Assembly: GCA_001768515.1 (NCBI GenBank)
Contig: MEOA01000015.1
Location: 6,226 to 70,225 of the forward strand
Source: Bacteroidetes bacterium GWE2_42_24
GTDB lineage: Bacteria; Bacteroidota; Bacteroidia; Bacteroidales; TTA-H9
Length of the DNA: 64,000 nt
Reading direction: 5' to 3'
The translations under genes and the position numbers were made by a program. A model generated the notes under the pieces. It searched no databases. It worked only from the letters and a program-made list of their open reading frames with translations, and was not told the origin of the DNA. Numbering within the stretch: position 1 is the first letter of the stretch; every line of letters starts with the position of its first letter. This document shows, in pieces, positions 25,081 through 64,000 of this stretch.

Positions 25081-26283
25081 TTATTTCGATTCCTGAGCTT
25101 TAAAGGCATCCATGTCGAATGTGAGACTGAACCGAAGGGTATTGTCGAGAGGGTTACGTTGGTCGGTACTCACTAGGTATGAGAAATCAAGTCCAAACAC
25201 GTTGTAGCGGAGGCCGGCACCGAAGGTGAAAAACTTGCGATCACCCTTATCTGCACTTTCGTGATGATAACCACCTCTGATGGCAAACTGTTTGTTGTAC
25301 CAATATTCAACGCCCACAGCCCAGGTGATTTCTTTCAACTCTTCGCTGAAACCATCAGGAGCATCATAGAATGATTGTAACATCCCCTGAAAAACAGAAA
25401 CATTATCATTCATACCTCTCAGGATAGGCGTTTCATTGTTAACATCCACGCCGGTATCATAAATCGGGGGTGTAGGGACGAGCAGTTTGGTAAACTCAAC
25501 CGTGCCTGTAATCGTATTAAAGTTATCGATATTATAGGTGAAGGCAGGGCCAATACGTAGCTGGGTGGGGATAAAGTCTTTTTCTATATCACTGGTATAG
25601 CTGATTTTTGAACCAATGTTGGCAATGTTAACCCCCAACGCAAACTGACCCGACTGTCCGGAGGAGAAGTCGATAGGTTTACGGTAATAGATTGAAACAT
25701 CGGCAGCAACAGAAGTCCCGGCGTGGGTTTCTACATTTCCGGATCCGACTGACTGGCCCTGAGTCAGGTTTGAATAGATAAATTTTGCCGAAACAGCTCC
25801 TGACAGATGATCGGTAAATAAACGTGAGTAGGTCCCCTGAATGGTGAACTCGTTGGGTTTGTATATGCCTTTATCCGCTCCTGAGGCATCGGTAAATTGA
25901 ATTTCGCCCAGCGAAAAATATCTGAGGGAACCGGCAATTGTCTGACGTTTGTCTAGTTTGTAGTAACCCGTAAGATAACCGAGGCCGATGTCATCAACGA
26001 GTTCTTTTAGCCAGGGGCTATATGAGACTGAAAATCCCATTTGTTTGTCAATGAAAGCGTATTTTGCAGGATTCCAATGCATGGAGTTTACATCAGGGTC
26101 GGTAGCTACACCGGTTTCTCCCATTGAGCCACCACGGGCATCAGGTGCAATCAGCATAAAAGGCACGGCAGTTGTGATGGCCAGGGGACGATATACATTC
26201 GATTCCTGCGCCCGGACCATCTGGCTGTTCAGGGAAAGACCGGCTATCAGAGCCAATGAAAAATATTTCAGTTTGAAACGCAT
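25081..26283 (-). CDS. porV: T9SS outer-membrane channel/shuttle protein PorV (LptO)
   Basis: Signal peptide, then the hallmark ITTAVPFMLIAPDARGGSMGETGVATDPDVNSMHWNPAKYAF. 400 aa beta-barrel adjacent to porU. Confidence 0.9.
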   Translation of the reverse strand: MRFKLKYFSLALIAGLSLNSQMVRAQESNVYRPLAITTAVPFMLIAPDARGGSMGETGVATDPDVNSMHWNPAKYAFIDKQMGFSVSYSPWLKELVDDIGLGYLTGYYKLDKRQTIAGSLRYFSLGEIQFTDASGADKGIYKPNEFTIQGTYSRLFTDHLSGAVSAKFIYSNLTQGQSVGSGNVETHAGTSVAADVSIYYRKPIDFSSGQSGQFALGVNIANIGSKISYTSDIEKDFIPTQLRIGPAFTYNIDNFNTITGTVEFTKLLVPTPPIYDTGVDVNNETPILRGMNDNVSVFQGMLQSFYDAPDGFSEELKEITWAVGVEYWYNKQFAIRGGYHHESADKGDRKFFTFGAGLRYNVFGLDFSYLVSTDQRNPLDNTLRFSLTFDMDAFKAQESK

Positions 26284-26414
26284 AGGATAATTAGTTTTCC
26301 TCTTAGAGATGTGTTTGTACGGTTATTAACGTAGTGTTTCCAAAAAAGTATGCAAAACTAAGGAATATTTCTAAAAAATCATTTCAACAGGGATCAGTCC
26401 CTTTCAATATAGAG

Positions 26415-41175: not shown

Positions 41176-44100
41176 TTACCGTGCAATGGTAAGTTTTCGG
41201 ATCAGGGTTGTTCCTGTGCTTGTTTTAAGTCTCAGGAGGTAAACTCCTGAAGATATTGTTGATGTATTTAACTTCAATCTACCCGATGAGTGTCCGAGTT
41301 CGGTGAAGAATACCTCATTACCCAGTGCAGTTATCAAACTCAACCTGCCTTTGTCTTCTTTTGCTATATGCCATGCTATTTCGGCATATTGATTTGCCGG
41401 ATTGGGACCTACTGTGAAAAGACAGGCGCCATCCTCTTCCTGTTGCCCGATTGTAATGTCGCTTTGAACTTCGTTACTCATGGCAGATTCGCAATTTCCT
41501 CCGTGAATCGCAGAAACCGTGTAATAATGAATCAGGTCAAACCCGGGGATGTCAATATAGAAGGTGTCTGCAACTGGTGAGGAGTTCAGAAATACTCCGT
41601 CACGGTATATCTGGTAACCATTCACTGAGCGTGAATCATCATCGGGCGAACTCCATAGTAAACCAGCATCTGGAAATGTGTTCACATCAGAAAGCCCTGC
41701 CAGTATGATGGCATTGGAATCGGATGACAGGGTCAGCAAACCCGTTGTCTCTCCCGCAGGGATGGCTCTTAGAGCCAATTTGCCATCAACTGGCCAGTCC
41801 AGACCGCGGGAAGGGCTTATCTCAATCCATCCCTCAGCTACAGGGGCTGTAATATTAACTGTATCCATTAAGTTAAGGCCTTCTGAAGAAGATACAATGA
41901 AAGAATAGTTCTCGCTTTTAAGCCTGCCGGCATTATAAATTTTTAACGATGCGAGTCCGTTCCCACTGGCCGAAACAAAAGAGAGACTGGCCTCATTCAC
42001 TCTGACATCTGTCGGAATACCATTCCATGGGCGGATAAATAAGGGGACAGTTTTGCTGGTAAGGCAGTCGGGGGCTTCCCAGTTAAGCGTTATACCCTCA
42101 GTCGCCTGGTTTAAGGTAAGTCCTATAGGCGCCTTGCAAACCGGATCTATTCTGATGTTGTCCATCATCCATGAACCCAATAAGGACGAGTTATTACCCC
42201 ATGCCTTGAATCTTAGACGAAACGGCTCACTATTCCAGAGGGTTATATCAGTAGAAACAGGTGTCCATTCAAACGACTCCTGTGCCTGATACTGATGAAG
42301 TGGTATCCATTGGCCACCAGCAAAGATATCAACATCAAAGTGGTTTTCGGAAGTTCCGTTGCATAGGAGCTTTAGGTCGAAAGAAAGAAGAATGTCGGCA
42401 CAATCGAATAAGGAAGCTGAGAAGTAAGGGCTTAACATTGCATAGCTGTATTCGCTGAAAACAGGCGTGCCGTTGAAGGCAGCACAGAACCCGCTCTTGC
42501 CGGAAGTTGGTGTGATTGACCAGTTTCCCTGAGAAGGATCAAATATCCAGTTGTTATCTTCGAACGACATGGCAGACCAATCCTCATTAAATGGGATCAT
42601 CATTGCATCGGAATTCTGAACGGTGTCACAGAGAACCATGCGCGATCTGAGTGTGTCACCTCCTGGAAAGGTGTTATAGCAAACTGTAACACCATAGATA
42701 AGAGCAGTATCTGGTATGCCTTCATCGGTGTAACCAATGGCAGACTGTTCTGCAAACGAGATTAGCGAATCATTCCGAACCACTTCATATCCAAGTTTGT
42801 TAAGTATCGTACCTGAAGGGAGGGGTGGTGGAACCCATCCCACATACCCCGTCCCCTCTGTCGCGGTCGCCCATGCGTCATCAACCGGAGGCAGGTACCC
42901 TGAAGCGAATGTAAGTGACGCGCAGGCTGAATCACCAGGATACATGGCACAAACTGTGGCAATATGTTCTGTCCCATAAGCAAGCAACGATGACGGGAGT
43001 AAACAGGTGGTATCCTGAGTAGTAAGAATATAATTGCCGTCGAGAGAAACATTGTAACCCTCGAAACAGGGTGATGGGTCAACATAAAAAGCATCAATTA
43101 ATATATTGTCGATGTACCAGTAATTTATGTCATTGCTGTTAACACCTCTGGCTACAAATGAGAGATATTCAGGTTGGTAACCATAATCGACGATTATACT
43201 TTCATGACGCCAATCAAAACTGCCATTTAGGTTCGAATAAGTACACAAGGGCGAAGAAGAGTACCCGTTTATTTCTACCGCCATTGTATTCTCATTTGTT
43301 GTCGCATAATTATCAAGTTTTAAGTCAAATCTAATTCTAATTTTATTTGATAATGGATTAATTACTTGACCGGTTGCGAATCTAATCCTTGATTCATAAT
43401 TTGTGAGTTGAGGCGACCAGCTAAATCTGGCAGAAAGTGAGTCTTGTCCCGATTGTTCAACGCCCCAGTTTGCCCCATGGTTTACGCAGGAAGCTGGCCA
43501 GGTTCCTTCATTAAAGTTTACCTGCAATAATGTATCCAGATAAATTGGCTGAATTCTCCAGGCTAATCGGGCAGTGGTGGTGTCAATTTTTAGCTCTCCG
43601 GGTGAAGGAGTTAGTAATTGAGGGAAGAGGCTGACAATAGTATCATTGTAAATTGTTATTGTATCAACTATCAAACCATAGTTTGGACTATAAACTTTCA
43701 GTTGGTATCTGCCATTCCAGACCGCAGGGAATGTGAGCTGGTTACCTGTTGAACTAAGAATATAAACTGAATCATATAGATAGTTAATAAGGACTATGTC
43801 AAATCTCGAAGTATCACCAGTACAATCGCGGTTGAATATAAAAGTAACCGAGTCTACCCAATTTTTACCCACAACCGGTGAAAAGTAGAATTCTGATTTT
43901 CTGTTCATGGAGTACACTACTCTGTTTGCCCAACGATAGCCATTGTCAGGAAGCTGTGGCCAATTGGTATCGGCGAATACTAAACTATCCGACTCCCCAA
44001 GAAAAGTAAAAAGCGCGGGTTGCGGTTCATCACCCTGCTTTACTCTGAAAAATTCGTAACTAACAGGACCAACGGCCTCTTTTCCTCCAATTATCGGATT

Positions 44101-45456
44101 TATTTCGTTTGTCTCGCAAGTTGCCCGTATGAGAAAATTTCCTCCGGTATAGGGTTGCCAGCCATTAACAGCGTCATAGATATAGCTTCTGCCACTCGAT
44201 GATTGATCCACCCCGATTTTTGTGCTGTTAATTAAAGGCGAACCTAAGGCTATACAAAAGTTTCCATCGAACATTTTATTGGGTAAAAACAGATTATATA
44301 GTTGCCATTTTTCTGTACTCATTGTCCAAATTTCCATTGAATCAACAGGAGTAGCAGGTAAACCAGTTGATCTATCAATAGGCATCTGGTATACATAACA
44401 GCCCATGATACTGTTATCATTATTATAAATGCTAATATCGCACGGGAAGAGCTTCTCATTGGAAGGGAGGCTGTCGAAAAAAACGGCATATCGTTTCCCC
44501 TGCTCCATTGTTATATATGATTCAGCGGTACCATCATCGTGAATGTATTCGATTTTTTTTATAGGTAATTTCCACTTTATGATAACCTCTGTCTGATCCG
44601 GAGACAGAACGGCATATCCATATTGGCTCGGGGGGAGTGATTCCAGCATGGCGAAGTTACGAGCTAAAGGCTGTCCATTGGGGAAATTCAGGCTAATGGT
44701 CATATCCTGATAACCTGGCTTTTGAATCCGCACCACGTTCTGACCGGCTGGTATATTTTCGAATGAGAATGTCCCGTTGGGAATTGTCCATTCTGAAACA
44801 GATGGGTTACTTACGGTTCCGGGAAAGAAGATTCTGGCACCATGTATAGGCTCTTGTGTAACAGAGTCATAAACGATTCCTGAGAAAGAGCTGTGTCCCA
44901 ATAAGATTCCAATGTTTGGCCTGTAGTTTAACAACGCTGTTCCTCCTGGTAGGCAATTATTGGATACTGGTTTCGCTGTCCGGCCTGAAATAAGTGATGC
45001 TTTGACCATGCTGGTTGCACCATCGGTTTCAACATGCGGACAAAAATTAACCAACAGGTTTTTACTGCCATTCCAGTAAAAGCTGCCATTGATTGGTATG
45101 GTTATCTCTCCCAGTGAACCCATCAAAATTGTTTTAACTGCGGTTTTGCTTTCGGATGAAAAATCTGCGGATGCAGCCGTTGTTGCATCTGTATTCCCAA
45201 TTTCAACTGACAAAGTGATGTTTGTGCTGGCAGGGGTTGAAAGAAATAACCTGATTTCAGTCACATAACCGGGTGTTCCGCCTCCGGCTATTAATTCTTC
45301 TTTTTTGATTAAAACAGTAGTTGCTTTTTGAGCTCCATAAGTTGTGTAGAGAGGGTATTCGGTCTCGTAATTTCCATTTCCGATCCAGAGGATACTTTGT
45401 GCATTTAAGGAGAGGGATATTAAAAAGTATGTCAGGAGAAATAGCAGGTGTTTCAT
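41176..45456 (-). CDS. Giant secreted/surface protein, T9SS type A CTD cargo
   Basis: 1426 aa with signal peptide MKHLLFLLTYFLISLSLNAQ. It has a CarboxypepD_reg-like segment (GIVYDSVTQEPIHGARIFFPG) and repeated MAM/choice-of-anchor-like module ends (WYIDNILID, WMMDNIRID). The C-terminal type A sorting domain is ..VGPNPANQYAEIAW...GVYLLRLKTSTGTTLIRKLTIAR. Confidence 0.85.
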   Translation of the reverse strand: MKHLLFLLTYFLISLSLNAQSILWIGNGNYETEYPLYTTYGAQKATTVLIKKEELIAGGGTPGYVTEIRLFLSTPASTNITLSVEIGNTDATTAASADFSSESKTAVKTILMGSLGEITIPINGSFYWNGSKNLLVNFCPHVETDGATSMVKASLISGRTAKPVSNNCLPGGTALLNYRPNIGILLGHSSFSGIVYDSVTQEPIHGARIFFPGTVSNPSVSEWTIPNGTFSFENIPAGQNVVRIQKPGYQDMTISLNFPNGQPLARNFAMLESLPPSQYGYAVLSPDQTEVIIKWKLPIKKIEYIHDDGTAESYITMEQGKRYAVFFDSLPSNEKLFPCDISIYNNDNSIMGCYVYQMPIDRSTGLPATPVDSMEIWTMSTEKWQLYNLFLPNKMFDGNFCIALGSPLINSTKIGVDQSSSGRSYIYDAVNGWQPYTGGNFLIRATCETNEINPIIGGKEAVGPVSYEFFRVKQGDEPQPALFTFLGESDSLVFADTNWPQLPDNGYRWANRVVYSMNRKSEFYFSPVVGKNWVDSVTFIFNRDCTGDTSRFDIVLINYLYDSVYILSSTGNQLTFPAVWNGRYQLKVYSPNYGLIVDTITIYNDTIVSLFPQLLTPSPGELKIDTTTARLAWRIQPIYLDTLLQVNFNEGTWPASCVNHGANWGVEQSGQDSLSARFSWSPQLTNYESRIRFATGQVINPLSNKIRIRFDLKLDNYATTNENTMAVEINGYSSSPLCTYSNLNGSFDWRHESIIVDYGYQPEYLSFVARGVNSNDINYWYIDNILIDAFYVDPSPCFEGYNVSLDGNYILTTQDTTCLLPSSLLAYGTEHIATVCAMYPGDSACASLTFASGYLPPVDDAWATATEGTGYVGWVPPPLPSGTILNKLGYEVVRNDSLISFAEQSAIGYTDEGIPDTALIYGVTVCYNTFPGGDTLRSRMVLCDTVQNSDAMMIPFNEDWSAMSFEDNNWIFDPSQGNWSITPTSGKSGFCAAFNGTPVFSEYSYAMLSPYFSASLFDCADILLSFDLKLLCNGTSENHFDVDIFAGGQWIPLHQYQAQESFEWTPVSTDITLWNSEPFRLRFKAWGNNSSLLGSWMMDNIRIDPVCKAPIGLTLNQATEGITLNWEAPDCLTSKTVPLFIRPWNGIPTDVRVNEASLSFVSASGNGLASLKIYNAGRLKSENYSFIVSSSEGLNLMDTVNITAPVAEGWIEISPSRGLDWPVDGKLALRAIPAGETTGLLTLSSDSNAIILAGLSDVNTFPDAGLLWSSPDDDSRSVNGYQIYRDGVFLNSSPVADTFYIDIPGFDLIHYYTVSAIHGGNCESAMSNEVQSDITIGQQEEDGACLFTVGPNPANQYAEIAWHIAKEDKGRLSLITALGNEVFFTELGHSSGRLKLNTSTISSGVYLLRLKTSTGTTLIRKLTIAR

Positions 45457-51050: not shown

Positions 51051-51145
51051 TCGCCAAATAAAAGCCGGTTGATGTTCGCGCCGGTAATTTTCATAATTTA
51101 GTGCCCGCTTAGGGTATGGTAACTCAAGCTAATACTTACGGTCAA

Positions 51146-52459
51146 ATGAAGTTTTCGAAAATATCTTTTAAAGCGGCGGTAGTTTGGTTCATTACTGCAT
51201 TGAGCCTGACACAGATCCAAGCTCAACCTGTCATCAAACTCATCAGCGATACTGCCTGTAGTCCCGATACCGTACAAATTTCCATTACCGGCACCAGGGT
51301 AATTGGTGTTAACAGCTTTGAGCTTTTGGTTCATTTTGATGATTCGCGTATGCGGTTCGATAGTGTCTTTTATGCTATGAATTTTCTGGATAGACATTTC
51401 CAGACCGATTTGATATCGTCTTCTGTCGTTAAGCTTACCTGGGATTCTGTCAGAGCCTTAACCATAGGCTCCGAGGCTGTCATGTTTAAACTTCAGTTTA
51501 CGGTGCTTAACCCGGGTAATCCTGCTATCATTTGGGAAGGTACTTCGGCACTTCGTGATGCGGAACAGCAACTGGTTATTTCCGAATTTGTTGATGCCAA
51601 TGTTTTGATTAATTCCAAATATATCAGGTACACCCTGACCCAGATCATGGAGGGATGTGTCAAGGAGAAAAAGGGACGCTATTCTGTCTCGGTAACTTAC
51701 GGATCGCCTCCATTTATATACGACTGGCATGGTGGATTTCTGAATCCTGGTGTTGATACTATTGTGCTGGGACTAAAGGGTGGCCCAAACAAGCTGACGA
51801 TATACGACAGCAAGTGGTGCCGGTTTGATACTACTTTTCAGGTGAAGGTAAAGCCTGCTCCGGCGATCAGGTTATCAACCGAGGAGGCTGTACCTTATGT
51901 GATTGTTCAGAAACCAGATGTTCAATTTTATTCAAACATCGATTCCATTAATCTGATCGATAATTCGATACCCAACTGGCAATGGGATTTCGGCGAACCA
52001 GATAGTTCGAGGTCGGTTGAAACAGATCCCTTGCATACATTCAAGACAGCATTTACTGTTCTGGAGGCTGGTACGACGAGTTATATGATTAAACTCTGGG
52101 CCATCAGCAACGATGGGTGCGACACAAGTGTTTATAAAGAAGTTCAGATAGATAAACCCGAGCCGGAAGTGTTTAATGTATTTACTCCCAATGGTGACGG
52201 ACAAAATGAGTTGTTTACCATTCATGGAAGTAAAAAGGCAGATCTCGAGGAATGGCCTCTCAGTGATTTTTATGATCGGATGGAATTACTGGTGTACGAC
52301 CGTAACGGAAGGAAGGTCTATGAATCGACAGATTATCAAAACGATTGGGATGGCGGCGGTCATGCCGATGGTACTTACTTCTATGTTTTGAAATGTTATG
52401 GCCGATTTGGCGATGAAACCTACCAGGGGTCGCTGATGATTCTTACCGGCGGCAAGTAG
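51146..52459 (+). CDS. Secreted protein with T9SS type B C-terminal sorting domain (gliding-motility-associated CTD)
   Basis: Start at ATG 51146 with a signal peptide. It has a PKD-like segment (WQWDFGEPDS). The C-terminus VFNVFTPNGDGQNELFTIHG...YDRNGRKVYES..WDG...DGTYFYVL matches the type B CTD. Confidence 0.85.
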   Translation: MKFSKISFKAAVVWFITALSLTQIQAQPVIKLISDTACSPDTVQISITGTRVIGVNSFELLVHFDDSRMRFDSVFYAMNFLDRHFQTDLISSSVVKLTWDSVRALTIGSEAVMFKLQFTVLNPGNPAIIWEGTSALRDAEQQLVISEFVDANVLINSKYIRYTLTQIMEGCVKEKKGRYSVSVTYGSPPFIYDWHGGFLNPGVDTIVLGLKGGPNKLTIYDSKWCRFDTTFQVKVKPAPAIRLSTEEAVPYVIVQKPDVQFYSNIDSINLIDNSIPNWQWDFGEPDSSRSVETDPLHTFKTAFTVLEAGTTSYMIKLWAISNDGCDTSVYKEVQIDKPEPEVFNVFTPNGDGQNELFTIHGSKKADLEEWPLSDFYDRMELLVYDRNGRKVYESTDYQNDWDGGGHADGTYFYVLKCYGRFGDETYQGSLMILTGGK

Positions 52460-52574: not shown

Positions 52575-53594
52575 ATGCCAAACGAACCATTGCCAGTCAT
52601 CACTTTTCTTAAGGCATCTGCCAATAATCCTTTAGTGGATGTACGGGCGCCGCAGGAGTTTCTGCGGGGACACATCCCGGGGGCAATCAATATTCCAATT
52701 TTCAGCGATGAACAACGGGCCAGGGTTGGCACCGAATATGCCCGTAAAGGGCAACAAGCTGCCATTTTGTTAGGATTGGATTTAATTGGACCTGAGTTGA
52801 CTCTTCGATGCCGGCAACTGATGAAACATGCTCCTGCCGGATCAATTGTCAGTCTTTACTGCTGGCGGGGTGGTCTGCGGAGCGCTGCCATGGAATGGTT
52901 GTTTAACCTGATTGGGTATTCCACCAATCGACTGCAAGGGGGTTACAAGGCTTTCAGACTTGAAGTTCAGGGATCATTCGGACTTGCATATAACCTCAGG
53001 GTGATAGCAGGCCCTACAGGTTCAGGTAAGACAGAGATACTCCGGCATATGAGTGTGCTTGGTGCTCAGGTGCTTGATCTTGAAGCGCTGGCCAACCATC
53101 GTGGTTCTGTTTTCGGTGGTTTGGGTATGGAACCCCAGCCTGGTACCGAGCATTTCGAGAACCTGCTTTATTACAGGTTATCAACCTTTAACAGAGATCA
53201 GGTTATTTGGGTTGAAGATGAGAGCCTTTCCATCGGCAACTGTTTTATTCCAAGAGAATTCTATAATCAGATGCAACAGGTCCGAACCTATGTGACAGGT
53301 GCTTCAAGGACTGAAAGGGTTGAAAGACTGGTCGGGATGTACGGATCTATAGACATAATCCTGTTGAAAGAGGCACTGGTTAAAATTGGGAAAAGGCTTG
53401 GTGGTGATAAGCTAAAGATCGCGCTTGAGGCATTGGCTGTTGGTGATCTGCATGAGGTTGCGCGGCTTTCGCTTGATTATTACGATAAAACCTATGCGGG
53501 AGGCTTATCCGCACGAAATCCAGAAAGTGTTGTTTATATCACACCTTCAGCTCAGGATACTGCTGCGATAGCCCGTCACCTCCTAGCGCTGTAA
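52575..53594 (+). CDS. mnmH: tRNA 2-selenouridine synthase
   Basis: Rhodanese domain with active-site loop YCWRGGLRS, followed by P-loop AGPTGSGKTE. 339 aa. Confidence 0.85.
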   Translation: MPNEPLPVITFLKASANNPLVDVRAPQEFLRGHIPGAINIPIFSDEQRARVGTEYARKGQQAAILLGLDLIGPELTLRCRQLMKHAPAGSIVSLYCWRGGLRSAAMEWLFNLIGYSTNRLQGGYKAFRLEVQGSFGLAYNLRVIAGPTGSGKTEILRHMSVLGAQVLDLEALANHRGSVFGGLGMEPQPGTEHFENLLYYRLSTFNRDQVIWVEDESLSIGNCFIPREFYNQMQQVRTYVTGASRTERVERLVGMYGSIDIILLKEALVKIGKRLGGDKLKIALEALAVGDLHEVARLSLDYYDKTYAGGLSARNPESVVYITPSAQDTAAIARHLLAL

Positions 53595-57624: not shown

Positions 57625-57632
57625 CAAAAGTA
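57625..57632 (-). promoter_or_regulatory. -7 promoter box TACTTTTG upstream of thrS
   Basis: The minus strand reads TACTTTTGCACC, the same extended box as the tRNA-Glu promoter. It lies 55 nt upstream of the thrS ATG. Confidence 0.45.
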
Positions 57633-57687: not shown

Positions 57688-58140
57688 TCAGCAGCCAATT
57701 CCCATTTGCTGAAGTAATTCAACGGCATCGTATACACATGGGATACATACTGCGGCAGTAAGCCCCTGATCGGCTACCGCTTCGCGGCCTTCCTGTGTGT
57801 TAAGGTTTTGCCCTAAAAGTTCACTGCAGGAGGTGGCGTGGTGTTTTTCAGAGAACTGCAGGGTGATCTGTTGTATTAGTTCCCGTGCCTTCGCTTTGCG
57901 GGTCGCTTCATCGGTAACAGTCGTACTGCAATGTAGTCCAATGACCATATAGGCACCCGTTAAAGCACCACAGGTTAGTTGTAGTCTGCCCATACCACCT
58001 CCGAAACCAGAAGCGATGTTGATGGCTTGCCGGTTGTCTTCTGAAATAAGTTCTTCAAATGTACCCAATACCGATTGGGCACAGTTATATCCTGATTTTA
58101 ACATTTGAAGGGCATTCGAAGCTCTGTCGTGATTTATCAT
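57688..58140 (-). CDS. C_GCAxxG_C_C family (putative redox-active) protein
   Basis: 150 aa with YNCAQSVL, LTCGALTGAYMVIG and the later Cys residues (..TSCSELL.., ..CIPCVYD..) in the family order. Confidence 0.7.
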   Translation of the reverse strand: MINHDRASNALQMLKSGYNCAQSVLGTFEELISEDNRQAINIASGFGGGMGRLQLTCGALTGAYMVIGLHCSTTVTDEATRKAKARELIQQITLQFSEKHHATSCSELLGQNLNTQEGREAVADQGLTAAVCIPCVYDAVELLQQMGIGC

Positions 58141-58152
58141 GGGTGGTTTCTA

Positions 58153-59445
58153 TTATTTTGTATTAGTAGTTTTGTTTCCCAGCCAATCATTCAGGGTGTC
58201 CAGAACTTTCTTTTTTGGTTCACTGCTCAATGTCCCGATTCGTGTTCCATGACAGCCTCCCGGTGCAATGATGCGAAGGGCATTGGTCGCCGTCGACGGC
58301 AGGGCGGCTGAGGCACACCAAGGGTCGTTGCCCCCGTATATATAGATGATGTTGTTACCTTCCAGCGCAATGAAATCACGCACACGCTGAAGTGTGAGGG
58401 GATTAAACTTGTAATGCGGTCCTTTGGGGGCCATGATACTGTTGCTGATGTAACCGTTTTTGATGGAGAGCAAATCACCTACGCCGGTGGTGTCGTAACC
58501 ATAATAACCAATTTCAGTGTAGGCCTGATAGAAGAAAGCCTGTGTTCCATCCATCCCCGGGTGGGTGAAGTTGTCAAGGCCAACCGTGGCTGTGAGATGC
58601 ATGTATAGCTCACGGGGTGTGGCTGATGCTCCTGGTATGTTTTCAGGCTTATTGCACCATTGCCAGTAACTGAACGGGTATTCCAGTACCATATAATCCA
58701 ACGTACTGTCAGGACTCATTGCCCATGTGTATTGACGCTTCCCGGCCTGATTCTTTAACAGGTCAAGCACCGCCGAACGTTGCTTCAATACATTCCGCTG
58801 AAAAGTGGTGATCTTACTACGGGTGATCGAATCGCCCACCTGTTTCAGGAACCAGATTTCGCGGGGATCTTCCTGAGCGATATTGTAGGGCGCTACGTAT
58901 GCTACTGTAGCATCGGCATCGTTGGGGTAAAACGTGCGGTGGTAAACGGCTGTCTGGCCGCCTTTGCTGATGCCGGTGGTGATCCATTTGCCCTTATAGA
59001 TGGTTTTCAGCAATTCGATAACATGATGATGGTCAGCGGCTGCATTTTCAACGGTAAGGTAATCCCATGGCTGCCCTTCGGGTTTGGATCCTGAAAAGTA
59101 TCTGTGTTCTACAACCAGTTGATTACTTTGGAGTATGTTTGCCAGCTCTTCCTCAAAAAAGGTATTGTTGGCGTAATCGGCCGAATATCCTTCAGTGGTC
59201 ATCACCATGGGTTTGCTGAAACCCCGATGCGAAAGGAAAGCCCGTTGTGTGAAAGTCCCTTTCTCAGGATGACGATGATCGAGGGGCTGGGTGATTGTGA
59301 GGATGTATGATTCGGTGAAACCGGGAGCAGCAGCTTTGGTTTCAACCTTTACACCGGGTAGGGCGTTCAGTTGCTCCTGCAACGTCTCACTGATAACGGT
59401 GAGTGCGCTTGAGAGGAATAGCATAAGAAGAAGTCTGGCTTTCAT
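58153..59445 (-). CDS. Secreted alpha/beta-hydrolase serine peptidase, S28/S37-like (Pro-directed / tripeptidyl aminopeptidase families)
   Basis: Signal peptide MKARLLLMLFLSSALTVIS. N-terminal block ITQPLDHRHPEKGTFTQRAFLSH..PMVMTTEGY and nucleophile elbow GISKGG. Confidence 0.55.
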   Translation of the reverse strand: MKARLLLMLFLSSALTVISETLQEQLNALPGVKVETKAAAPGFTESYILTITQPLDHRHPEKGTFTQRAFLSHRGFSKPMVMTTEGYSADYANNTFFEEELANILQSNQLVVEHRYFSGSKPEGQPWDYLTVENAAADHHHVIELLKTIYKGKWITTGISKGGQTAVYHRTFYPNDADATVAYVAPYNIAQEDPREIWFLKQVGDSITRSKITTFQRNVLKQRSAVLDLLKNQAGKRQYTWAMSPDSTLDYMVLEYPFSYWQWCNKPENIPGASATPRELYMHLTATVGLDNFTHPGMDGTQAFFYQAYTEIGYYGYDTTGVGDLLSIKNGYISNSIMAPKGPHYKFNPLTLQRVRDFIALEGNNIIYIYGGNDPWCASAALPSTATNALRIIAPGGCHGTRIGTLSSEPKKKVLDTLNDWLGNKTTNTK

Positions 59446-59481
59446 ACTGTAGTATTTGAGTTGTTATTTATTTCGTTTTTA

Positions 59482-60450
59482 CTATCCGAACAGATGCCCT
59501 GCTTGCAGCAGGGAGACATTCAGGGTTACCGACATGGTTATAATATCAGAACCGGACGAGTTATCCGTTTCAGTAATGGCGACCAACGATTGGTATCCAA
59601 ACAGACTCCTGATGATGAATGTGGCTTCCCGGGGCTGTTTAAGGGCGGCCAGGGAAGCGACTCTTGTACACGATGCTGCTGCGCCGGGTGAGTGGTTAAT
59701 GGTTCCCTGAGGGGTTGCAGTGGCTTGTATGGGAAAGGCGTTATCTGTTCCGGTGAAAACAACGGCTGATGGTATCGCCTCTTGCATTGTAAAGGGGTTT
59801 ATCTGCTTCAGATTGATTGCGGCTGCCCGCAATATCCATTGGCCGTAATCCTCCATCCTTCGCAGCATCGTCTTTTCATGGCTTAACGTGATACCCAAGG
59901 TGTCAGCTGCTGTAAGAAGATAAAATTCACCGGCAAAAACAATGTCAAATTTCACCAGCCCTATACCCGGAACACCTGTCTCCTGACCAGTAGCCACAGT
60001 TTTAACCGGGATGTTCATGAGTTTACATTCGAAATCGTAACCTGTCAATGGAGTAACCATACATTGAATCGAAGCGGCTGGTGTGTTGTATGAGTAGCTG
60101 CCTGCATTGGTTGCGCCGCTTTGCAGATAACGCCTGACAGATAGAGCTGCCATACCATCCAATGATAATCCTGTGTTCAGTCCGTAAGATTCATTTATAA
60201 GATCAATGATCCTGCTGTTATCTCCACTTCTTTTGGTGAAAAGCATCGTTTGATCTGGGCTTAATTGAAGTTTGTCCAGTCGGTCTTTTGCTAGGTCTGC
60301 CAACCGTTCCGTTGCGATTCCCATCTCTGTCTGATCTGCTTTAACTAAATCAGGCAGGGTCGTGATGATTACGGGCTGCCCGGCTACAGTGAAGCTATAC
60401 ACTTCCGGAAGTGTAAGCGAAGATTGGTAACCGGGATTAGAAGTATACAT
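59482..60450 (-). CDS. Divergent proline racemase / hydroxyproline epimerase-fold protein lacking both catalytic cysteines
   Basis: Family blocks are recognisable. SFTVAGQPVIITTLPDL aligns to IDSHTGGEPTRxVxGGxPDL, and VPGIGLVKFDIVFAGEFYLL to VPGxGxVxxDIAxGGxFFxxV. HSPGAAASCTRVASLAA replaces DRSPCGTGTSAKLAxLxA, and GLSLDGMAAL replaces GYLxMCGHGTIG. No signal peptide. Confidence 0.55.
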   Translation of the reverse strand: MYTSNPGYQSSLTLPEVYSFTVAGQPVIITTLPDLVKADQTEMGIATERLADLAKDRLDKLQLSPDQTMLFTKRSGDNSRIIDLINESYGLNTGLSLDGMAALSVRRYLQSGATNAGSYSYNTPAASIQCMVTPLTGYDFECKLMNIPVKTVATGQETGVPGIGLVKFDIVFAGEFYLLTAADTLGITLSHEKTMLRRMEDYGQWILRAAAINLKQINPFTMQEAIPSAVVFTGTDNAFPIQATATPQGTINHSPGAAASCTRVASLAALKQPREATFIIRSLFGYQSLVAITETDNSSGSDIITMSVTLNVSLLQAGHLFG

Positions 60451-60508
60451 GATACGAGGTTGGTTTATTGTGGATTGAGTGAACCATGGTGAAGGCAGGT
60501 GTCAGGAG

Positions 60509-60516
60509 CAAAGGTA
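60509..60516 (-). promoter_or_regulatory. -7 promoter box TACCTTTG upstream of the racemase-fold gene
   Basis: The minus strand has an exact TAnnTTTG match 58 nt upstream of the ATG at 60450. Confidence 0.35.
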
Positions 60517-60833
60517 AAAAAGGTGATTCAATTGAACCATGTTAAAATAAACTGATTTCTTATTTCGCTCAGCTATCTGTTGCCTTTCGCTGTCTGCCGA
60601 TGAAACGCTTCTTTGCTAAAACAGTTAAAAATATCTTTGGCCTTTTGTCCTGACGAATCACGGCATCGGATTGATTATTCTCCGGCAATGGCAAATAACA
60701 CCAGCAATTCAGCATAGCAATCTCTTCGCTGGTCTGTGTATTGTTTAGCCGATGTATATCTGAGACTATTAACCCCGTAGGATATGGGCTTTTCTCACGT
60801 CATTGAAGTAAAAGCTCCTCATGTAACACCCTA

Positions 60834-63200
60834 TTAGCAATCGCTGTGTTCCGTCCTTCGGATGATTTCATCCTGAAGGTCTTCACCCAGATCGTTGAAG
60901 TAATCGCTGTAGCCTGCAACACGAACAATAAGATCCCGGTATTTCTCCGGATGTTTTTGTGCATCACGCAGTGTATCGGCATTTACTACGTTAAACTGAA
61001 TGTGGTGCCCGTCCATCCGAAAGTAGCTGCGGATGAGTGCCGTTAGTTTGCCGTAGCTTTCGTTGTCGTCGAAGAATGAGGGAGTGAACTTCTGGTTTAG
61101 CAAGGTCCCTCCGGTTTTGATGTGATCAATCTTTGCCGCCGATTTTAAAACGGCAGTTGGACCACAATGGTCGGCTCCCTGTACAGGACTGATTCCTTCT
61201 GATAGTGGGATGCCTGACAACCTTCCGTCAGGGGTAGCTCCTGTTACCTGACCGAAATAGATATGGCAGGTTGTGGGCAGCATGTTGATGCGGTAAGTAG
61301 CGCCACGTGGTGATTGCCTTCCATCCACAGCCTTGAAGAAGAGATTGAATATCCCGATGGCATGCCTGTCGGCGGTGTCATCGTCGTTACCCCATTTCGG
61401 AGTATTGAAAACCAACTCTTTTCTGAGTTCCTGATAATCCTGAAAATTACTGTCAAGCGCCTGGATCATTCCTTTCATCGTAATTGTCTGCTGATCATAA
61501 ACATGTTGTTTAATTGCGGTCAGGCTGTCGGTCAGACTACCTAATCCAACACCCTGGATGTAGGAACTGTTGTAGCGGGTGCCTCCGGCATTGTAATCAC
61601 ACCCGTTGGCTATGCAGTCGTCGATAAGCAGCGAAAGAAAAGGAACCGGCAGGTTAATGGCAAAGAGCTTTTCAATCACATTGTTGCCTCTGATCTTGAT
61701 GTCAACGAAATAGTTAACCTGTTTCTCAAAGGCCTCCATCATAAGGTTAAACGTACTGAATTTATCCGCCTCACCTGTGTGAAGGCCAACCTGTCTTCCG
61801 GTGCGGGGATCAAAGCCGTCATGGAGGGTTAACTCAAAAATTTTTGTCAGGTTAAAATAACCGGTCAGTATGTAGGCTTCGGTACCAAAGGCACCACTTT
61901 CAACACAACCCGAAGCCCCGCCGTTACGGGCATCTTCAGGTGTTTTTCCTTGTCGCATCAGTTCCTGAACGATGGCATCGGTGTTGAAGATGCTGGGTTG
62001 CCCAAATCCTGTCCTGATAATATTGAGTGTTTTGTGGATGAAACGATCCGGGTTTTTTTTGCTTACCTGTATCATGCTGCTTGGCTGTAGCAGCCTCATT
62101 TCCTGAATTACTTCGAGCAACAGGTAGGTCATTTCGTTTACAGCGTCAGAGCCGTCCTCTTTTACACCACCTAAGTTGATGAGTGAGAAATCGGTATAGG
62201 TGTTGCTCTCGAGTGCAGTGACGCCAATCTTGGGCGGCGCCGGATGGTTATTGAACTTAATCCAGAAACAATGAAGCAGTTCACGGGCCTCTTCTTTCGT
62301 GAGGCGCCCTGATGCAAGGTCTTGCTGATAAAAGGGGAGGAGGTGCTGATCGAGTCGTCCCGGATTAAATGAGTCCCAGGGGTTGAGTTCGGTGATCACC
62401 CCCAGATGAATGAACCAGTAATGCTGAAGGGCTTCATGAAGGGTTTCGGGTTTATGGGCTGGAACTCGTCGGCAGACTGCTGCCATCTGCTCAAGTTCTT
62501 TCTTTCGCTTATCGTCAGTTTCTGCTTGTGCCAGCTGCACCAATTCTTCGGCATGCCTTTCGCTGTAACGAATCAAAGCACTGGCAGCGAGTTCCATGCC
62601 TGCGAGTTCTTCCTGCTTTTCAAAGGCCTGCGGGTCGTTGAAAAAGTCGAGCGAAGCACGACTTTTTTCGATGTCGTCGATGATGTCGAGCAGCCCCTTG
62701 CTCCACATCTTTTTTCCAAGTACCGTGTGCCCGGGTGCCCGTTGCTCCTGAAATTCGGTGAAGATACCTGCATCGTAGGCTGCCTTCCATTCGCTGGTCA
62801 TGTTTCCCATCATTTTATCACGATGTGTCTTGCCCTGCCAGAACGGGATAATGACGTCGCGATATGCCTCACGTACGGCCTCATCTGATTTAAAGGAGAC
62901 TTTCGCGCGATTGTGCAATACGTCGAGGTCTTCGAGCGAGTGAAGTGTCACTTCGGGGTAAGTGGAGGTTGCTTTTGGTGCAGGTCCCCGTTCTCCGACA
63001 ATCAACTCTCCCGGATTGATGCAGATTGTTTTGTTGTTGAGCAGGTACATGAGGCAGCGGCCCCTTCTGACGGGAGCCGAAACTTCCCGCGCTGCATCAC
63101 TTTGGTGAAAACGGGTAACTATTAACGCTCTTTCCGCGCTGATACAATTGATGGCGTCCAGACTCTGACGGCGGAGTTTATTTACACGTTCGGTGATCAT
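60834..63200 (-). CDS. hypD: Glycyl radical enzyme, PFL2/dehydratase class; probable trans-4-hydroxy-L-proline dehydratase
   Basis: 788 aa. Glycyl radical motif IVRVAGYSDYF (G763) and Cys loop GGASGCVES (C432, E434). H158, D276, S332, F338, Y448 and T643 sit at a constant -2 offset from the HypD active-site residues I recall. Confidence 0.65.
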   Translation of the reverse strand: MITERVNKLRRQSLDAINCISAERALIVTRFHQSDAAREVSAPVRRGRCLMYLLNNKTICINPGELIVGERGPAPKATSTYPEVTLHSLEDLDVLHNRAKVSFKSDEAVREAYRDVIIPFWQGKTHRDKMMGNMTSEWKAAYDAGIFTEFQEQRAPGHTVLGKKMWSKGLLDIIDDIEKSRASLDFFNDPQAFEKQEELAGMELAASALIRYSERHAEELVQLAQAETDDKRKKELEQMAAVCRRVPAHKPETLHEALQHYWFIHLGVITELNPWDSFNPGRLDQHLLPFYQQDLASGRLTKEEARELLHCFWIKFNNHPAPPKIGVTALESNTYTDFSLINLGGVKEDGSDAVNEMTYLLLEVIQEMRLLQPSSMIQVSKKNPDRFIHKTLNIIRTGFGQPSIFNTDAIVQELMRQGKTPEDARNGGASGCVESGAFGTEAYILTGYFNLTKIFELTLHDGFDPRTGRQVGLHTGEADKFSTFNLMMEAFEKQVNYFVDIKIRGNNVIEKLFAINLPVPFLSLLIDDCIANGCDYNAGGTRYNSSYIQGVGLGSLTDSLTAIKQHVYDQQTITMKGMIQALDSNFQDYQELRKELVFNTPKWGNDDDTADRHAIGIFNLFFKAVDGRQSPRGATYRINMLPTTCHIYFGQVTGATPDGRLSGIPLSEGISPVQGADHCGPTAVLKSAAKIDHIKTGGTLLNQKFTPSFFDDNESYGKLTALIRSYFRMDGHHIQFNVVNADTLRDAQKHPEKYRDLIVRVAGYSDYFNDLGEDLQDEIIRRTEHSDC

Positions 63201-63234
63201 GATGATTCAGTGTTTCTGATTTGGTTTGAAAAAT

Positions 63235-64000
63235 TTATCCTCCTTCCTTTACCCTGAAGCCTGCCGCTGAGAACAGGGAAAGGGCTTCACGGGTATTGGT
63301 GGTGGCTTGTTGGTTGGGTAGTTTGGGAGACGGTTGCAGCCCGAGTGCTTCGTATTTGTGTTGACCCAACCTGTGAAAAGGGAGGAAATCAACACGCTCG
63401 ACGGGCTGTCTGATGGTCTTAAGAAAATTGATTGTTTCGGTCAGCGATTTTAATCCATCGTTGACGCCTGGAATAAGCGGGATACGGATGATAAGCCTTA
63501 GCCCCGGTACATCAAGCGATACCAGATTTTTAAGGATTACATGGTTTGATTGTCCTGTTGTCTCATAATGACATTGGTCGTCAATTGATTTTATGTCGAA
63601 CAGGAGGAGGTCTGTCGTAGCTGCGACTTTTGAGAATACTTCACTGGTCGCAAAACCACTGGTGTCAACTGCTGTATTGATACCTTCTTCGTGGCACTGT
63701 TGTAGCATCTCCAGCAGAAAACCGTGTTGCATCAGCGGCTCTCCTCCCGAAAAGGTGACTCCGCCCTTGCTCTCTTCGAAATATAGCCTGTCGCGGATGA
63801 TTTCCCGCATCACTTCATCTGCCGTCATTTCTTTGCCAACAGTGCTGGCTAACCATTCTACACTGCCATCCAGTGTACGGCGTTTGTTAATGGTTCCGAT
63901 AGCCGATGTCTGGCTCTCAGGATTGTGGCACCAGAAACAACGCAACGGACAGCCTTTCAGGAAGACCGTAGTGCGTATGCCCGGGCCATCATGCACGGCG
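63235..64000 (-). CDS. Glycyl-radical enzyme activating protein (radical SAM), 5' end beyond the window
   Basis: ..HDGPGIRTTVFLKGCPLRCFWCHNPE (CX3CX2C) and SGGEPL. The first codon in the track is GTG inside a frame that stays open to the window edge. No additional Cys clusters are present. Confidence 0.85.
   Translation of the reverse strand, partial: AVHDGPGIRTTVFLKGCPLRCFWCHNPESQTSAIGTINKRRTLDGSVEWLASTVGKEMTADEVMREIIRDRLYFEESKGGVTFSGGEPLMQHGFLLEMLQQCHEEGINTAVDTSGFATSEVFSKVAATTDLLLFDIKSIDDQCHYETTGQSNHVILKNLVSLDVPGLRLIIRIPLIPGVNDGLKSLTETINFLKTIRQPVERVDFLPFHRLGQHKYEALGLQPSPKLPNQQATTNTREALSLFSAAGFRVKEGG

Follow-up and report, generated by a model that had tools for sequence, protein, structure and literature searches.

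The window analyzed here, a 64,000-nucleotide stretch of contig MEOA01000015.1 from Bacteroidetes bacterium GWE2_42_24, ends in a minus-strand locus that encodes a trans-4-hydroxy-L-proline dehydratase (HypD), its predicted radical-SAM activase, a protein with the proline-racemase fold, and a serine peptidase of family S37. Judging function from homology and synteny, we hold with moderate confidence that this hypD locus has been fixed, in one small clade, together with the racemase-fold/S37 unit and a permease, as a module for the salvage of hydroxyproline (Hyp) from peptides. The conserved unit consists of the activase, HypD, the racemase-fold protein, and the S37 peptidase, plus a divergently oriented permease, and is confined to a narrow group of environmental Bacteroidota. 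An initial annotation of the window had proposed a five-gene island that couples collagen-directed proteolysis, through a type IX secretion system (T9SS), to Hyp use; its observation of the locus, its HypD assignment, and its linkage of peptidase and racemase-fold genes stand, whereas the five-gene unit and the T9SS link do not, and the collagen substrate is unsupported.

The five consecutive minus-strand open reading frames (ORFs) reported between position 57688 and the window edge at 64000 were recovered at the same coordinates and in the same order, with the same intergenic gaps of 12 bp (C_GCAxxG_C_C/S37), 36 bp (S37/racemase-like), and 383 bp (racemase-like/hypD), and Pfam and NCBIfam upheld all five family assignments. 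The parts of the locus are as follows:

57688-58140, minus strand: C_GCAxxG_C_C family protein, 150 aa (PF09719, TIGR01909)
58153-59445, minus strand: S37/S28 serine peptidase with signal peptide, 430 aa (PF05576, PF05577)
59482-60450, minus strand: Pro_racemase-like protein with the fold of the proline racemase superfamily (PRS), catalytically degenerate, cytoplasmic, 322 aa (PF05544)
60509-60516, minus strand: TAnnTTTG-type box TACCTTTG, ~58 nt upstream of the racemase-like ATG
60451-60833, minus strand: spacer between hypD and the racemase-like gene, 383 bp, aligned with the spacers of relatives
60834-63200, minus strand: HypD, a glycyl radical enzyme (GRE), 788 aa (NF043068)
63235-64000, minus strand: HypD radical-SAM activase, short form (TIGR02494), with its 5' end beyond the window edge

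HypD is among the most abundant GREs of anaerobic communities. The window GRE scores 1211.7 bits against NF043068, the NCBIfam equivalog for HypD (cutoff 1100), and 988 bits, at 53% identity, against HypD of Clostridioides difficile (6VXC), whereas the nearest other class of enzyme, glycerol dehydratase, reaches 529 bits. All 12 residues that are essential in the C. difficile enzyme (Arg156, His160, Asp278, Lys326, Ser334, Asp339, Phe340, Cys434, Glu436, Tyr450, Thr645, and Gly765; PMC7077986) are identical in the window protein, as R154, H158, D276, K324, S332, D337, F338, C432, E434, Y448, T643, and G763. These include the HypD-specific residues (His160, Asp278, Asp339, Phe340, Ser334, Tyr450, and Thr645 in the numbering of PMC7077986), the glycyl radical site G763 within RVAGYS, and the Cys-x-Glu loop, C432-V433-E434. 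At the level of sequence, the identity of this GRE as a genuine HypD is therefore secure: each test used bears out the initial assignment, and a GRE that is not HypD is very unlikely. HypD proteins 100% identical to it occur on further contigs of up to 163 kb ("MAG TPA").

The adjoining radical-SAM protein would, by its context, serve as the HypD activase, though in a short, PflA-like form. It carries the CX3CX2C motif (CPLRCFWC) and exceeds the cutoff of the glycyl-radical activase model TIGR02494 (271 bits; cutoff 174), while its score against its best specific model, NF043069 for activases of trans-4-hydroxy-L-proline dehydratase, falls below the cutoff (263 bits; cutoff 425). Profile positions ~53-97, a ferredoxin-like insert, were unmatched both in the window protein and in the full-length activases of three related loci (L003, L007, and L014; handles of this form denote the loci compared). 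More generally, the Bacteroidota HypD activases found here (window 63235-64000; L003:6689-7486; L007:3713-4495; L014:7126-7914) are 260-265 aa long, are without the ~45-residue ferredoxin-like auxiliary-cluster insert of HypD/CutC/HPAD-type models, have an overall PflA-like alignment, and reach 237-279 bits where the equivalog requires 425. The window copy is cut at the edge, with ~11 N-terminal codons outside: the L003 protein begins MNGIVFDIRRYAVHDGPG, and the part inside the window sets in at AVHDGPG.

The order GRE, racemase-like, S37 was found in all eight loci in which the racemase-like gene has context (the window, L002, L003 with its duplicate L004, L005 in part, L006, L007, L011, and L016), and in L011 the racemase-like and S37 genes overlap by 4 bp. 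A scan of genome contigs matched only the SZUA-528 metagenome-assembled genome (MAG). Most of these loci are not independent evidence, because they share the synteny thrS-infC-rpmI-rplT-nth-selU. The flanks of L007, however, are unrelated (PHO4/PhoU upstream and LysR/AhpC/AhpF downstream), and yet it retains permease, activase, HypD, racemase-like gene, and S37, with HypD 67% and S37 63% identical and an activase ~46% identical to that of the window. In a neighbor-joining tree, the HypDs that have the racemase-like/S37 pair beside them all fall into one clade, which fits a single origin followed by retention. The linkage of peptidase and racemase-fold genes to hypD thus extends to relatives, L007 with its unrelated flanks among them; the conservation across Bacteroidota that the initial annotation asked about holds for one small clade, and not for the five-gene layout across the phylum.

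Divergent from the activase lies a permease gene (L003:4502-5803, L002:3272-4573, and L007:1848-3167, each on the minus strand), which was found wherever the sequence reaches far enough upstream, in three distinct loci (L002, L003 along with its duplicate, and L007). It encodes a polytopic membrane protein of 433-439 aa with weak NhaD/CitMHS-type similarity, and its 79% identity between L003 and L007 exceeds that of HypD, S37, and the activase, making it the best-conserved gene of the module. By synteny the permease is expected just beyond position 64000 of the window, and it is a candidate importer of Hyp or Hyp-containing peptides.

Four further hypD loci from more distant Bacteroidales (L012-L015), with HypD orthologs 71-72% identical, resemble the module in that a short-form activase and HypD have a peptidase gene immediately adjacent, and differ in having no racemase-fold gene, no S37 gene, and no NhaD-like permease. 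In L013-L015, the activase-hypD pair is accompanied by a DPPIV_N+Peptidase_S9 gene in divergent and a DUF885 gene in convergent orientation (L013:4482-6836; L014:4654-6936 and 10379-12166), and in L012 an M64 peptidase gene slightly overlaps the activase start (L012:156-1442). The combination of HypD with an adjacent peptidase thus recurs independently, with peptidases of unrelated families, and may be a general theme.

The initial annotation had placed a box in the 383-bp gap, and TACCTTTG was indeed located there. Six of seven loci have a TAnnTTTG box at 31-66 nt upstream of the racemase-like start, in spacers that are otherwise poorly conserved. Window-wide, the motif shows no excess over chance (40 found; 44.8 expected), and the significance of TACCTTTG lies in conservation at the same place in six of seven loci; with ~3 occurrences in each 10 kb of a strand, the box is unlikely to recur at this position by chance. 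We take TAnnTTTG to be the Bacteroidota -7 element and presume that TACCTTTG is the promoter box of the racemase-like/S37 unit. The arrangement points to transcription in two units, one of them activase-hypD and the other racemase-like-S37(-C_GCAxxG), between which read-through may occur. The window spacer also contains ~270 bp of extra DNA right after the hypD stop (~60560-60830), which the shorter spacers (103-113 bp) of L002, L003, and L006 lack. The 383-bp spacer gave no Rfam match at E<=1, and an RNA element or riboswitch there was rejected on this basis; ORFs that overlap the spacer are at most 60 aa long, and the largest lying fully inside it has 48 aa (60569-60715, minus strand). Matches to sigma-70 promoters and to intrinsic terminators were no commoner than chance, such models being uninformative for Bacteroidota. 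A second box of the Bacteroidota type, TACTTTTG, lies at 57625-57632 on the minus strand, ~55 nt upstream of the thrS start, so that thrS-infC-rpmI-rplT is a separate downstream unit that bounds the island.

A conserved box of its own is also what would be seen if the adjacency were historical, the racemase-like/S37 pair being an independently regulated, general peptide-scavenging operon that lies downstream of hypD in one lineage. The single HypD clade is consistent with one ancestral arrangement of this kind, as are the existence of standalone S37 orthologs without HypD and the thrS-infC-rplT synteny in most loci. We nevertheless regard this explanation as unlikely: L007 keeps the whole run from permease through S37 despite its different flanks and a HypD at 67%, the racemase-like family was met nowhere outside these loci in protein, profile, and metagenome motif searches, and the unrelated peptidases that adjoin HypD in other Bacteroidales argue for functional coupling.

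The racemase-like protein, described initially as atypical, proved to have the PRS fold, with the catalytic residues absent. PF05544 matches residues 120-309 only (49 bits; gathering threshold 27), and alignment with the canonical enzymes by hhalign gave 99.8% probability over 295 columns. A model made with AlphaFold2, from an input that left out the L006 and L007 rows, had a pLDDT of 82 and a pTM of 0.82, with a pLDDT <50 in the site-1 loop (residues 77-93). In Foldseek it matched structures of trans-3-hydroxy-L-proline (t3Hyp) dehydratase, proline racemase, and 4-Hyp epimerase with TM scores of 0.70-0.78 at 13-20% identity, the top match being the t3Hyp dehydratase 6R76 (TM 0.78). In the hhalign mapping, the first catalytic cysteine (MCGH) corresponds to T93, the ligand His to L95, the Asp (DRSPC) to N252, and the second cysteine to G256, and the EPRGH motif is absent. 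The description of the protein as Cys-less holds for the two catalytic positions and not for the whole chain, which contains three cysteines, two of them conserved in the family (C130 and C142).

The known PRS dyads are Cys/Cys, Cys/Thr, Ser/Cys, and Ser/Thr (PMC4113996), and the window pair Thr93/Gly256 fits none of them. In ten members of the family, site 1 is occupied by T, T, S, S, C, T, E, K, E, and a gap, and site 2 is Gly in nine and Pro in one; the ligands of the prolyl nitrogen are not conserved either (L/F/I/H/P at the His position and N/S/G/D/L at the Asp position). Because the dyad, these ligands, and the EPRGH motif have been lost, the protein is predicted to be unable to use known racemase, epimerase, or dehydratase chemistry. 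It would be either a pseudoenzyme, acting as a ligand- or partner-binding accessory, or a neofunctionalized enzyme. Since t3Hyp dehydratases are its closest canonical relatives (6R76, 46 bits; 7QPO, 34 bits), its sequence suggests descent from a genuine Hyp-catabolic enzyme.

Could it nonetheless be an active enzyme, such that the locus would handle both 4-Hyp, through HypD, and 3-Hyp from the same peptides? The t3Hyp dehydratases are closest to it by sequence, NCBIfam (NF047722 as top match), and Foldseek alike, and the T, S, or C at site 1 in six of the ten members would suit such an activity, as t3Hyp dehydratases with a Ser/Thr dyad and a non-catalytic site-2 residue exist (PMC4113996); the other four members, however, have E, K, E, or a gap at that site, and the Asn proposed to position the catalytic Ser (Ser90/Asn93, PMC4113996) is without a counterpart at the equivalent position. 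Similarly, the SPG-helix motif, part of the carboxylate-binding site in canonical enzymes, is kept, but the prolyl-nitrogen ligands and EPRGH are not. The low pLDDT of the site-1 loop, the relaxed N-terminal half (omega 0.25-0.47), and scores of 25-33 bits against PRS-enzyme equivalogs in NCBIfam with cutoffs of 376-556 also speak against activity, which we consider unlikely.

The gene itself is real and under purifying selection. It is the fastest-evolving of the locus: between the window and L003 its product is 43% identical, compared with 71-99% for its neighbors (HypD 89%, S37 86%, activase 81%, C_GCAxxG 71%, and ThrS 97%). In unsaturated pairs, its dN/dS was 0.25 (window and L005, dS 0.19) and 0.47 (L003 and L002, dS 0.35), the neighboring genes having 0.07-0.14 in the latter comparison. 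Such rates, together with the disappearance of every canonical catalytic and ligand residue, could be read as the decay of a gene that once encoded a Hyp epimerase or dehydratase and has no function left. This is very unlikely, given that dN/dS was <1 in every comparison, with constraint focused on residues 150-265 (omega 0.13-0.28), and that at least eight lineages, among which HypD identity falls to 67%, have kept the ORF uninterrupted and at full length (309-325 aa); the 243-aa product called in L011 is a gene-calling artifact, its open frame beginning MKLSAPYEFY. Tight coupling to the peptidase gene, overlapping in L011, and strongly conserved family motifs (QxxG[VI]PGxGL, FAGxFY, R.EDYG, T221, Q242, SPG, and C142) tell equally against decay.

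The family has conserved residues of its own (Q156, E200-D201, T221, Q242, and C142). In a further alternative, the racemase-fold protein is neofunctionalized and supplies a step that is lacking between peptidase and HypD, and, with the permease as a dedicated importer of Hyp or Hyp-containing peptides, the result would be a self-contained module of five genes for the anaerobic use of such peptides. The protein might then free or deliver Hyp from peptides with a C-terminal Hyp, or handle Δ1-pyrroline-5-carboxylate (P5C), by way of new residues, for example E200/D201, Q156, Q242, or T221; we think it quite improbable that this full scheme is correct. The distribution of the family is narrow: a word-indexed search of 5.8 billion proteins returned three relatives, and a HMMER profile search of 1.84 billion representatives returned ~7 at E<1e-10, followed by the canonical superfamily from E~1e-9. 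Degenerate-DNA motif scans of a metagenome collection, with patterns that match every known family locus except L007, gave no further racemase-like loci. No signal peptide was found in the racemase-like proteins.

The peptidase matches PF05576 with 211 bits (cutoff 27) and PF05577 with 54 bits, and its triad, S160 (TGISKGG, in a GxSKGG context), D374, and H399, is invariant in 14 diverse homologs, down to 43% identity. A 99% identical peptidase occurs in "Bacteroidetes bacterium HGW-Bacteroidetes-22" (P0012); with the identical HypDs, this places the window in an uncultured environmental Bacteroidota represented by MAGs alone. Every S37 ortholog has a signal peptide, usually with the cleavage context ...G/S|Q, and no T9SS C-terminal sorting domain (Por_Secre_tail/CHU_C) was matched in the window enzyme, in which the S37 match fills residues 23-424 of 430; genuine proteins with such a domain were detected elsewhere in the window (e.g., 41176-45456). 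Because the signal peptide is present and the T9SS tail absent, the peptidase is probably periplasmic, so that the claim of a secreted enzyme holds as far as the signal peptide and not for the T9SS C-terminal domain. The S37 member characterized from Streptomyces mobaraensis acts as a prolyl tri/tetrapeptidyl aminopeptidase (PMC11878206). Among solved structures, the closest relatives, although weak (E~1e-7), are all proline specific (DPP2/DPP7, the A. niger prolyl endoprotease, and Pro-X carboxypeptidase). The proline-directed character ascribed to the S37 and S28 families is borne out by both, and from them it is reasonable to expect that the window enzyme is a post-proline exopeptidase.

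Under the salvage reading that we favor, the periplasmic S37 enzyme would trim Pro/Hyp-rich oligopeptides as a post-proline/post-hydroxyproline exopeptidase, as its family membership suggests, and the products or free Hyp would be imported, possibly through the conserved permease. Cytoplasmic peptidases encoded elsewhere, none being present in the locus, would then free trans-4-L-Hyp; HypD, activated by the short-form activase, would dehydrate it to P5C, a step predicted from sequence alone; and housekeeping enzymes would turn P5C into proline or glutamate. The racemase-fold protein, whose C-terminal domain is the constrained part, would most likely be a non-catalytic or neofunctionalized accessory that may bind a ligand of the Pro/Hyp/P5C type or a partner protein.

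Several points weigh against this reading. The role of the racemase-fold protein is argued by negative inference. Neither the locus nor a survey of 30 ORFs (>=180 aa) from the first ~50 kb of the window yielded a proC, putA, prolidase, or peptide (POT) transporter gene. Conservation could in part reflect shared descent and not selection for linkage, because the HypDs of the module form one clade and only L007 gives independent flanks. The similarity of the permease to NhaD/CitMHS-type proteins is weak, and the permease was not observed in the window itself. The separate, conserved promoter box permits independent regulation of the peptidase unit. Finally, the S37 enzyme could be a general peptide scavenger, since its closest standalone orthologs (L008 and L009, 55-60% identity) are not near HypD.

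The most inclusive proposal, that all five genes including C_GCAxxG_C_C belong to a single collagen-peptide/Hyp pathway into which T9SS-secreted proteolysis feeds, is extremely unlikely. The C_GCAxxG_C_C protein is a genuine member of its family (PF09719, 101.6 bits, cutoff 27; TIGR01909, 70.7 bits, cutoff 47.4), the 12-bp gap suggests co-transcription with the peptidase gene in the window genome, and the gene is under purifying selection (dN/dS 0.14-0.19). It is present, however, in the window, L002, and L003/L004 only, and absent from L007 and from L006, in which S37 is followed directly by thrS; this supposed redox partner was accordingly rejected as a pathway member, and is a recent passenger, a lineage-specific add-on outside the conserved module. 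The organism does bear T9SS genes, as claimed, and these lie in the window, but the peptidase, without a T9SS tail and probably periplasmic, was rejected as T9SS cargo, and with it goes the proposed T9SS link between secreted proteolysis and Hyp use. Nothing specific points to collagen, a substrate that was pure inference; any Hyp-containing protein, for example plant or algal hydroxyproline-rich glycoproteins or necromass, would serve as a source. The names of the relatives' MAGs are those of what we take to be groundwater- or vent-type environmental bins, which also sits poorly with a collagen pathway.

Other features of the window were recorded in passing. NCBIfam terms C_GCAxxG_C_C a "(seleno)protein"; the relevant positions of the window copy are Cys, without need of an in-frame TGA. 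The L003 ortholog (76% identical) of the gene at 52575-53594 has Rhodanese and AAA_SelU domains; this gene probably encodes a tRNA 2-selenouridine synthase, and selenium use by the organism is likewise probable. The T9SS cluster spans 25081-37325:

25081-26283: PorV
26415-30251 and 30414-34250: tandem Peptidase_C25 (PorU-like) paralogs of 1278 aa, 36% identical to each other
34571-35575: PorP/SprF
35616-37325: protein with an FGE-sulfatase domain

In addition, a cargo protein of 1426 aa with a Por_Secre_tail is encoded at 41176-45456, and the L003 ortholog of the gene at 51116-52459 carries CHU_C.

No paper linking hypD to peptidase or racemase-like neighbors was found in a full-text literature search, outside which most subscription journals lie, and within the same literature the view that this layout is undescribed holds. 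A 2018 review from the Balskus laboratory names the enzymes by which free Hyp is liberated from proteins as an open challenge and reports only proC as a conserved hypD neighbor, in Clostridia (PMC6219649). The locus and its relatives supply testable candidates for Hyp release and uptake, namely, (i) an exported S37 peptidase tied to hypD, (ii) S9 (DPP-IV-type) and M64 peptidases, and (iii) the permease. They also reveal a small, fast-evolving offshoot of the PRS, either a pseudoenzyme or a new activity, that keeps strictly to its place between hypD and the peptidase gene despite its lost catalytic machinery. General importance is limited by the narrow distribution, ~8 metagenomic lineages.

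The best-known counterpart is the hypD / hypD-activase / proC locus of C. difficile, reportedly described by Levin and colleagues in 2017. In both systems a radical-SAM activase gene adjoins that for HypD, and the HypDs are orthologous (53%), with identical essential residues, so that the same chemistry, trans-4-L-Hyp to P5C, would be expected. The window locus differs in lacking an adjacent P5C reductase gene, in the short activase without the ferredoxin-like insert, and in the S37 peptidase, degenerate PRS-fold protein, and divergent permease that the module adds as conserved partners; moreover, the host is an environmental Bacteroidota and not a Stickland-fermenting clostridium. The C. difficile system has been reviewed (PMC6219649), and the structure of its HypD is available (PMC7077986).

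With proline racemase (ProR), 4-Hyp 2-epimerase, and t3Hyp dehydratase (PMC4113996; 6R76, 1W61, 4LB0, 4K7G), the racemase-fold protein has in common the two-domain fold (TM 0.70-0.78), the VPGxG hairpin, the (F/Y)(A/G)GxFY strand, the SP-x-helix motif, and a genomic association with hydroxyproline metabolism. Unlike them, its family has a variable site 1, Gly at site 2, and neither the His/Asp ligands nor EPRGH, and it stands apart by its 13-20% identity, its fast evolution, and its own conserved residues. The peptidase belongs to the same family as the S. mobaraensis S37 enzyme, with the Ser-Asp-His triad intact. It is also reminiscent of the periplasmic DPP-IV/PTP-A system of Porphyromonas gingivalis (PMC11878206, PMC5382784), likewise an exported enzyme system of a Bacteroidota that probably imports di- and tripeptides, although PTP-A and DPP-IV are S9 and not S37 enzymes. 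By analogy, a post-proline exopeptidase activity would suit repeats of the Gly-Pro-Hyp type.

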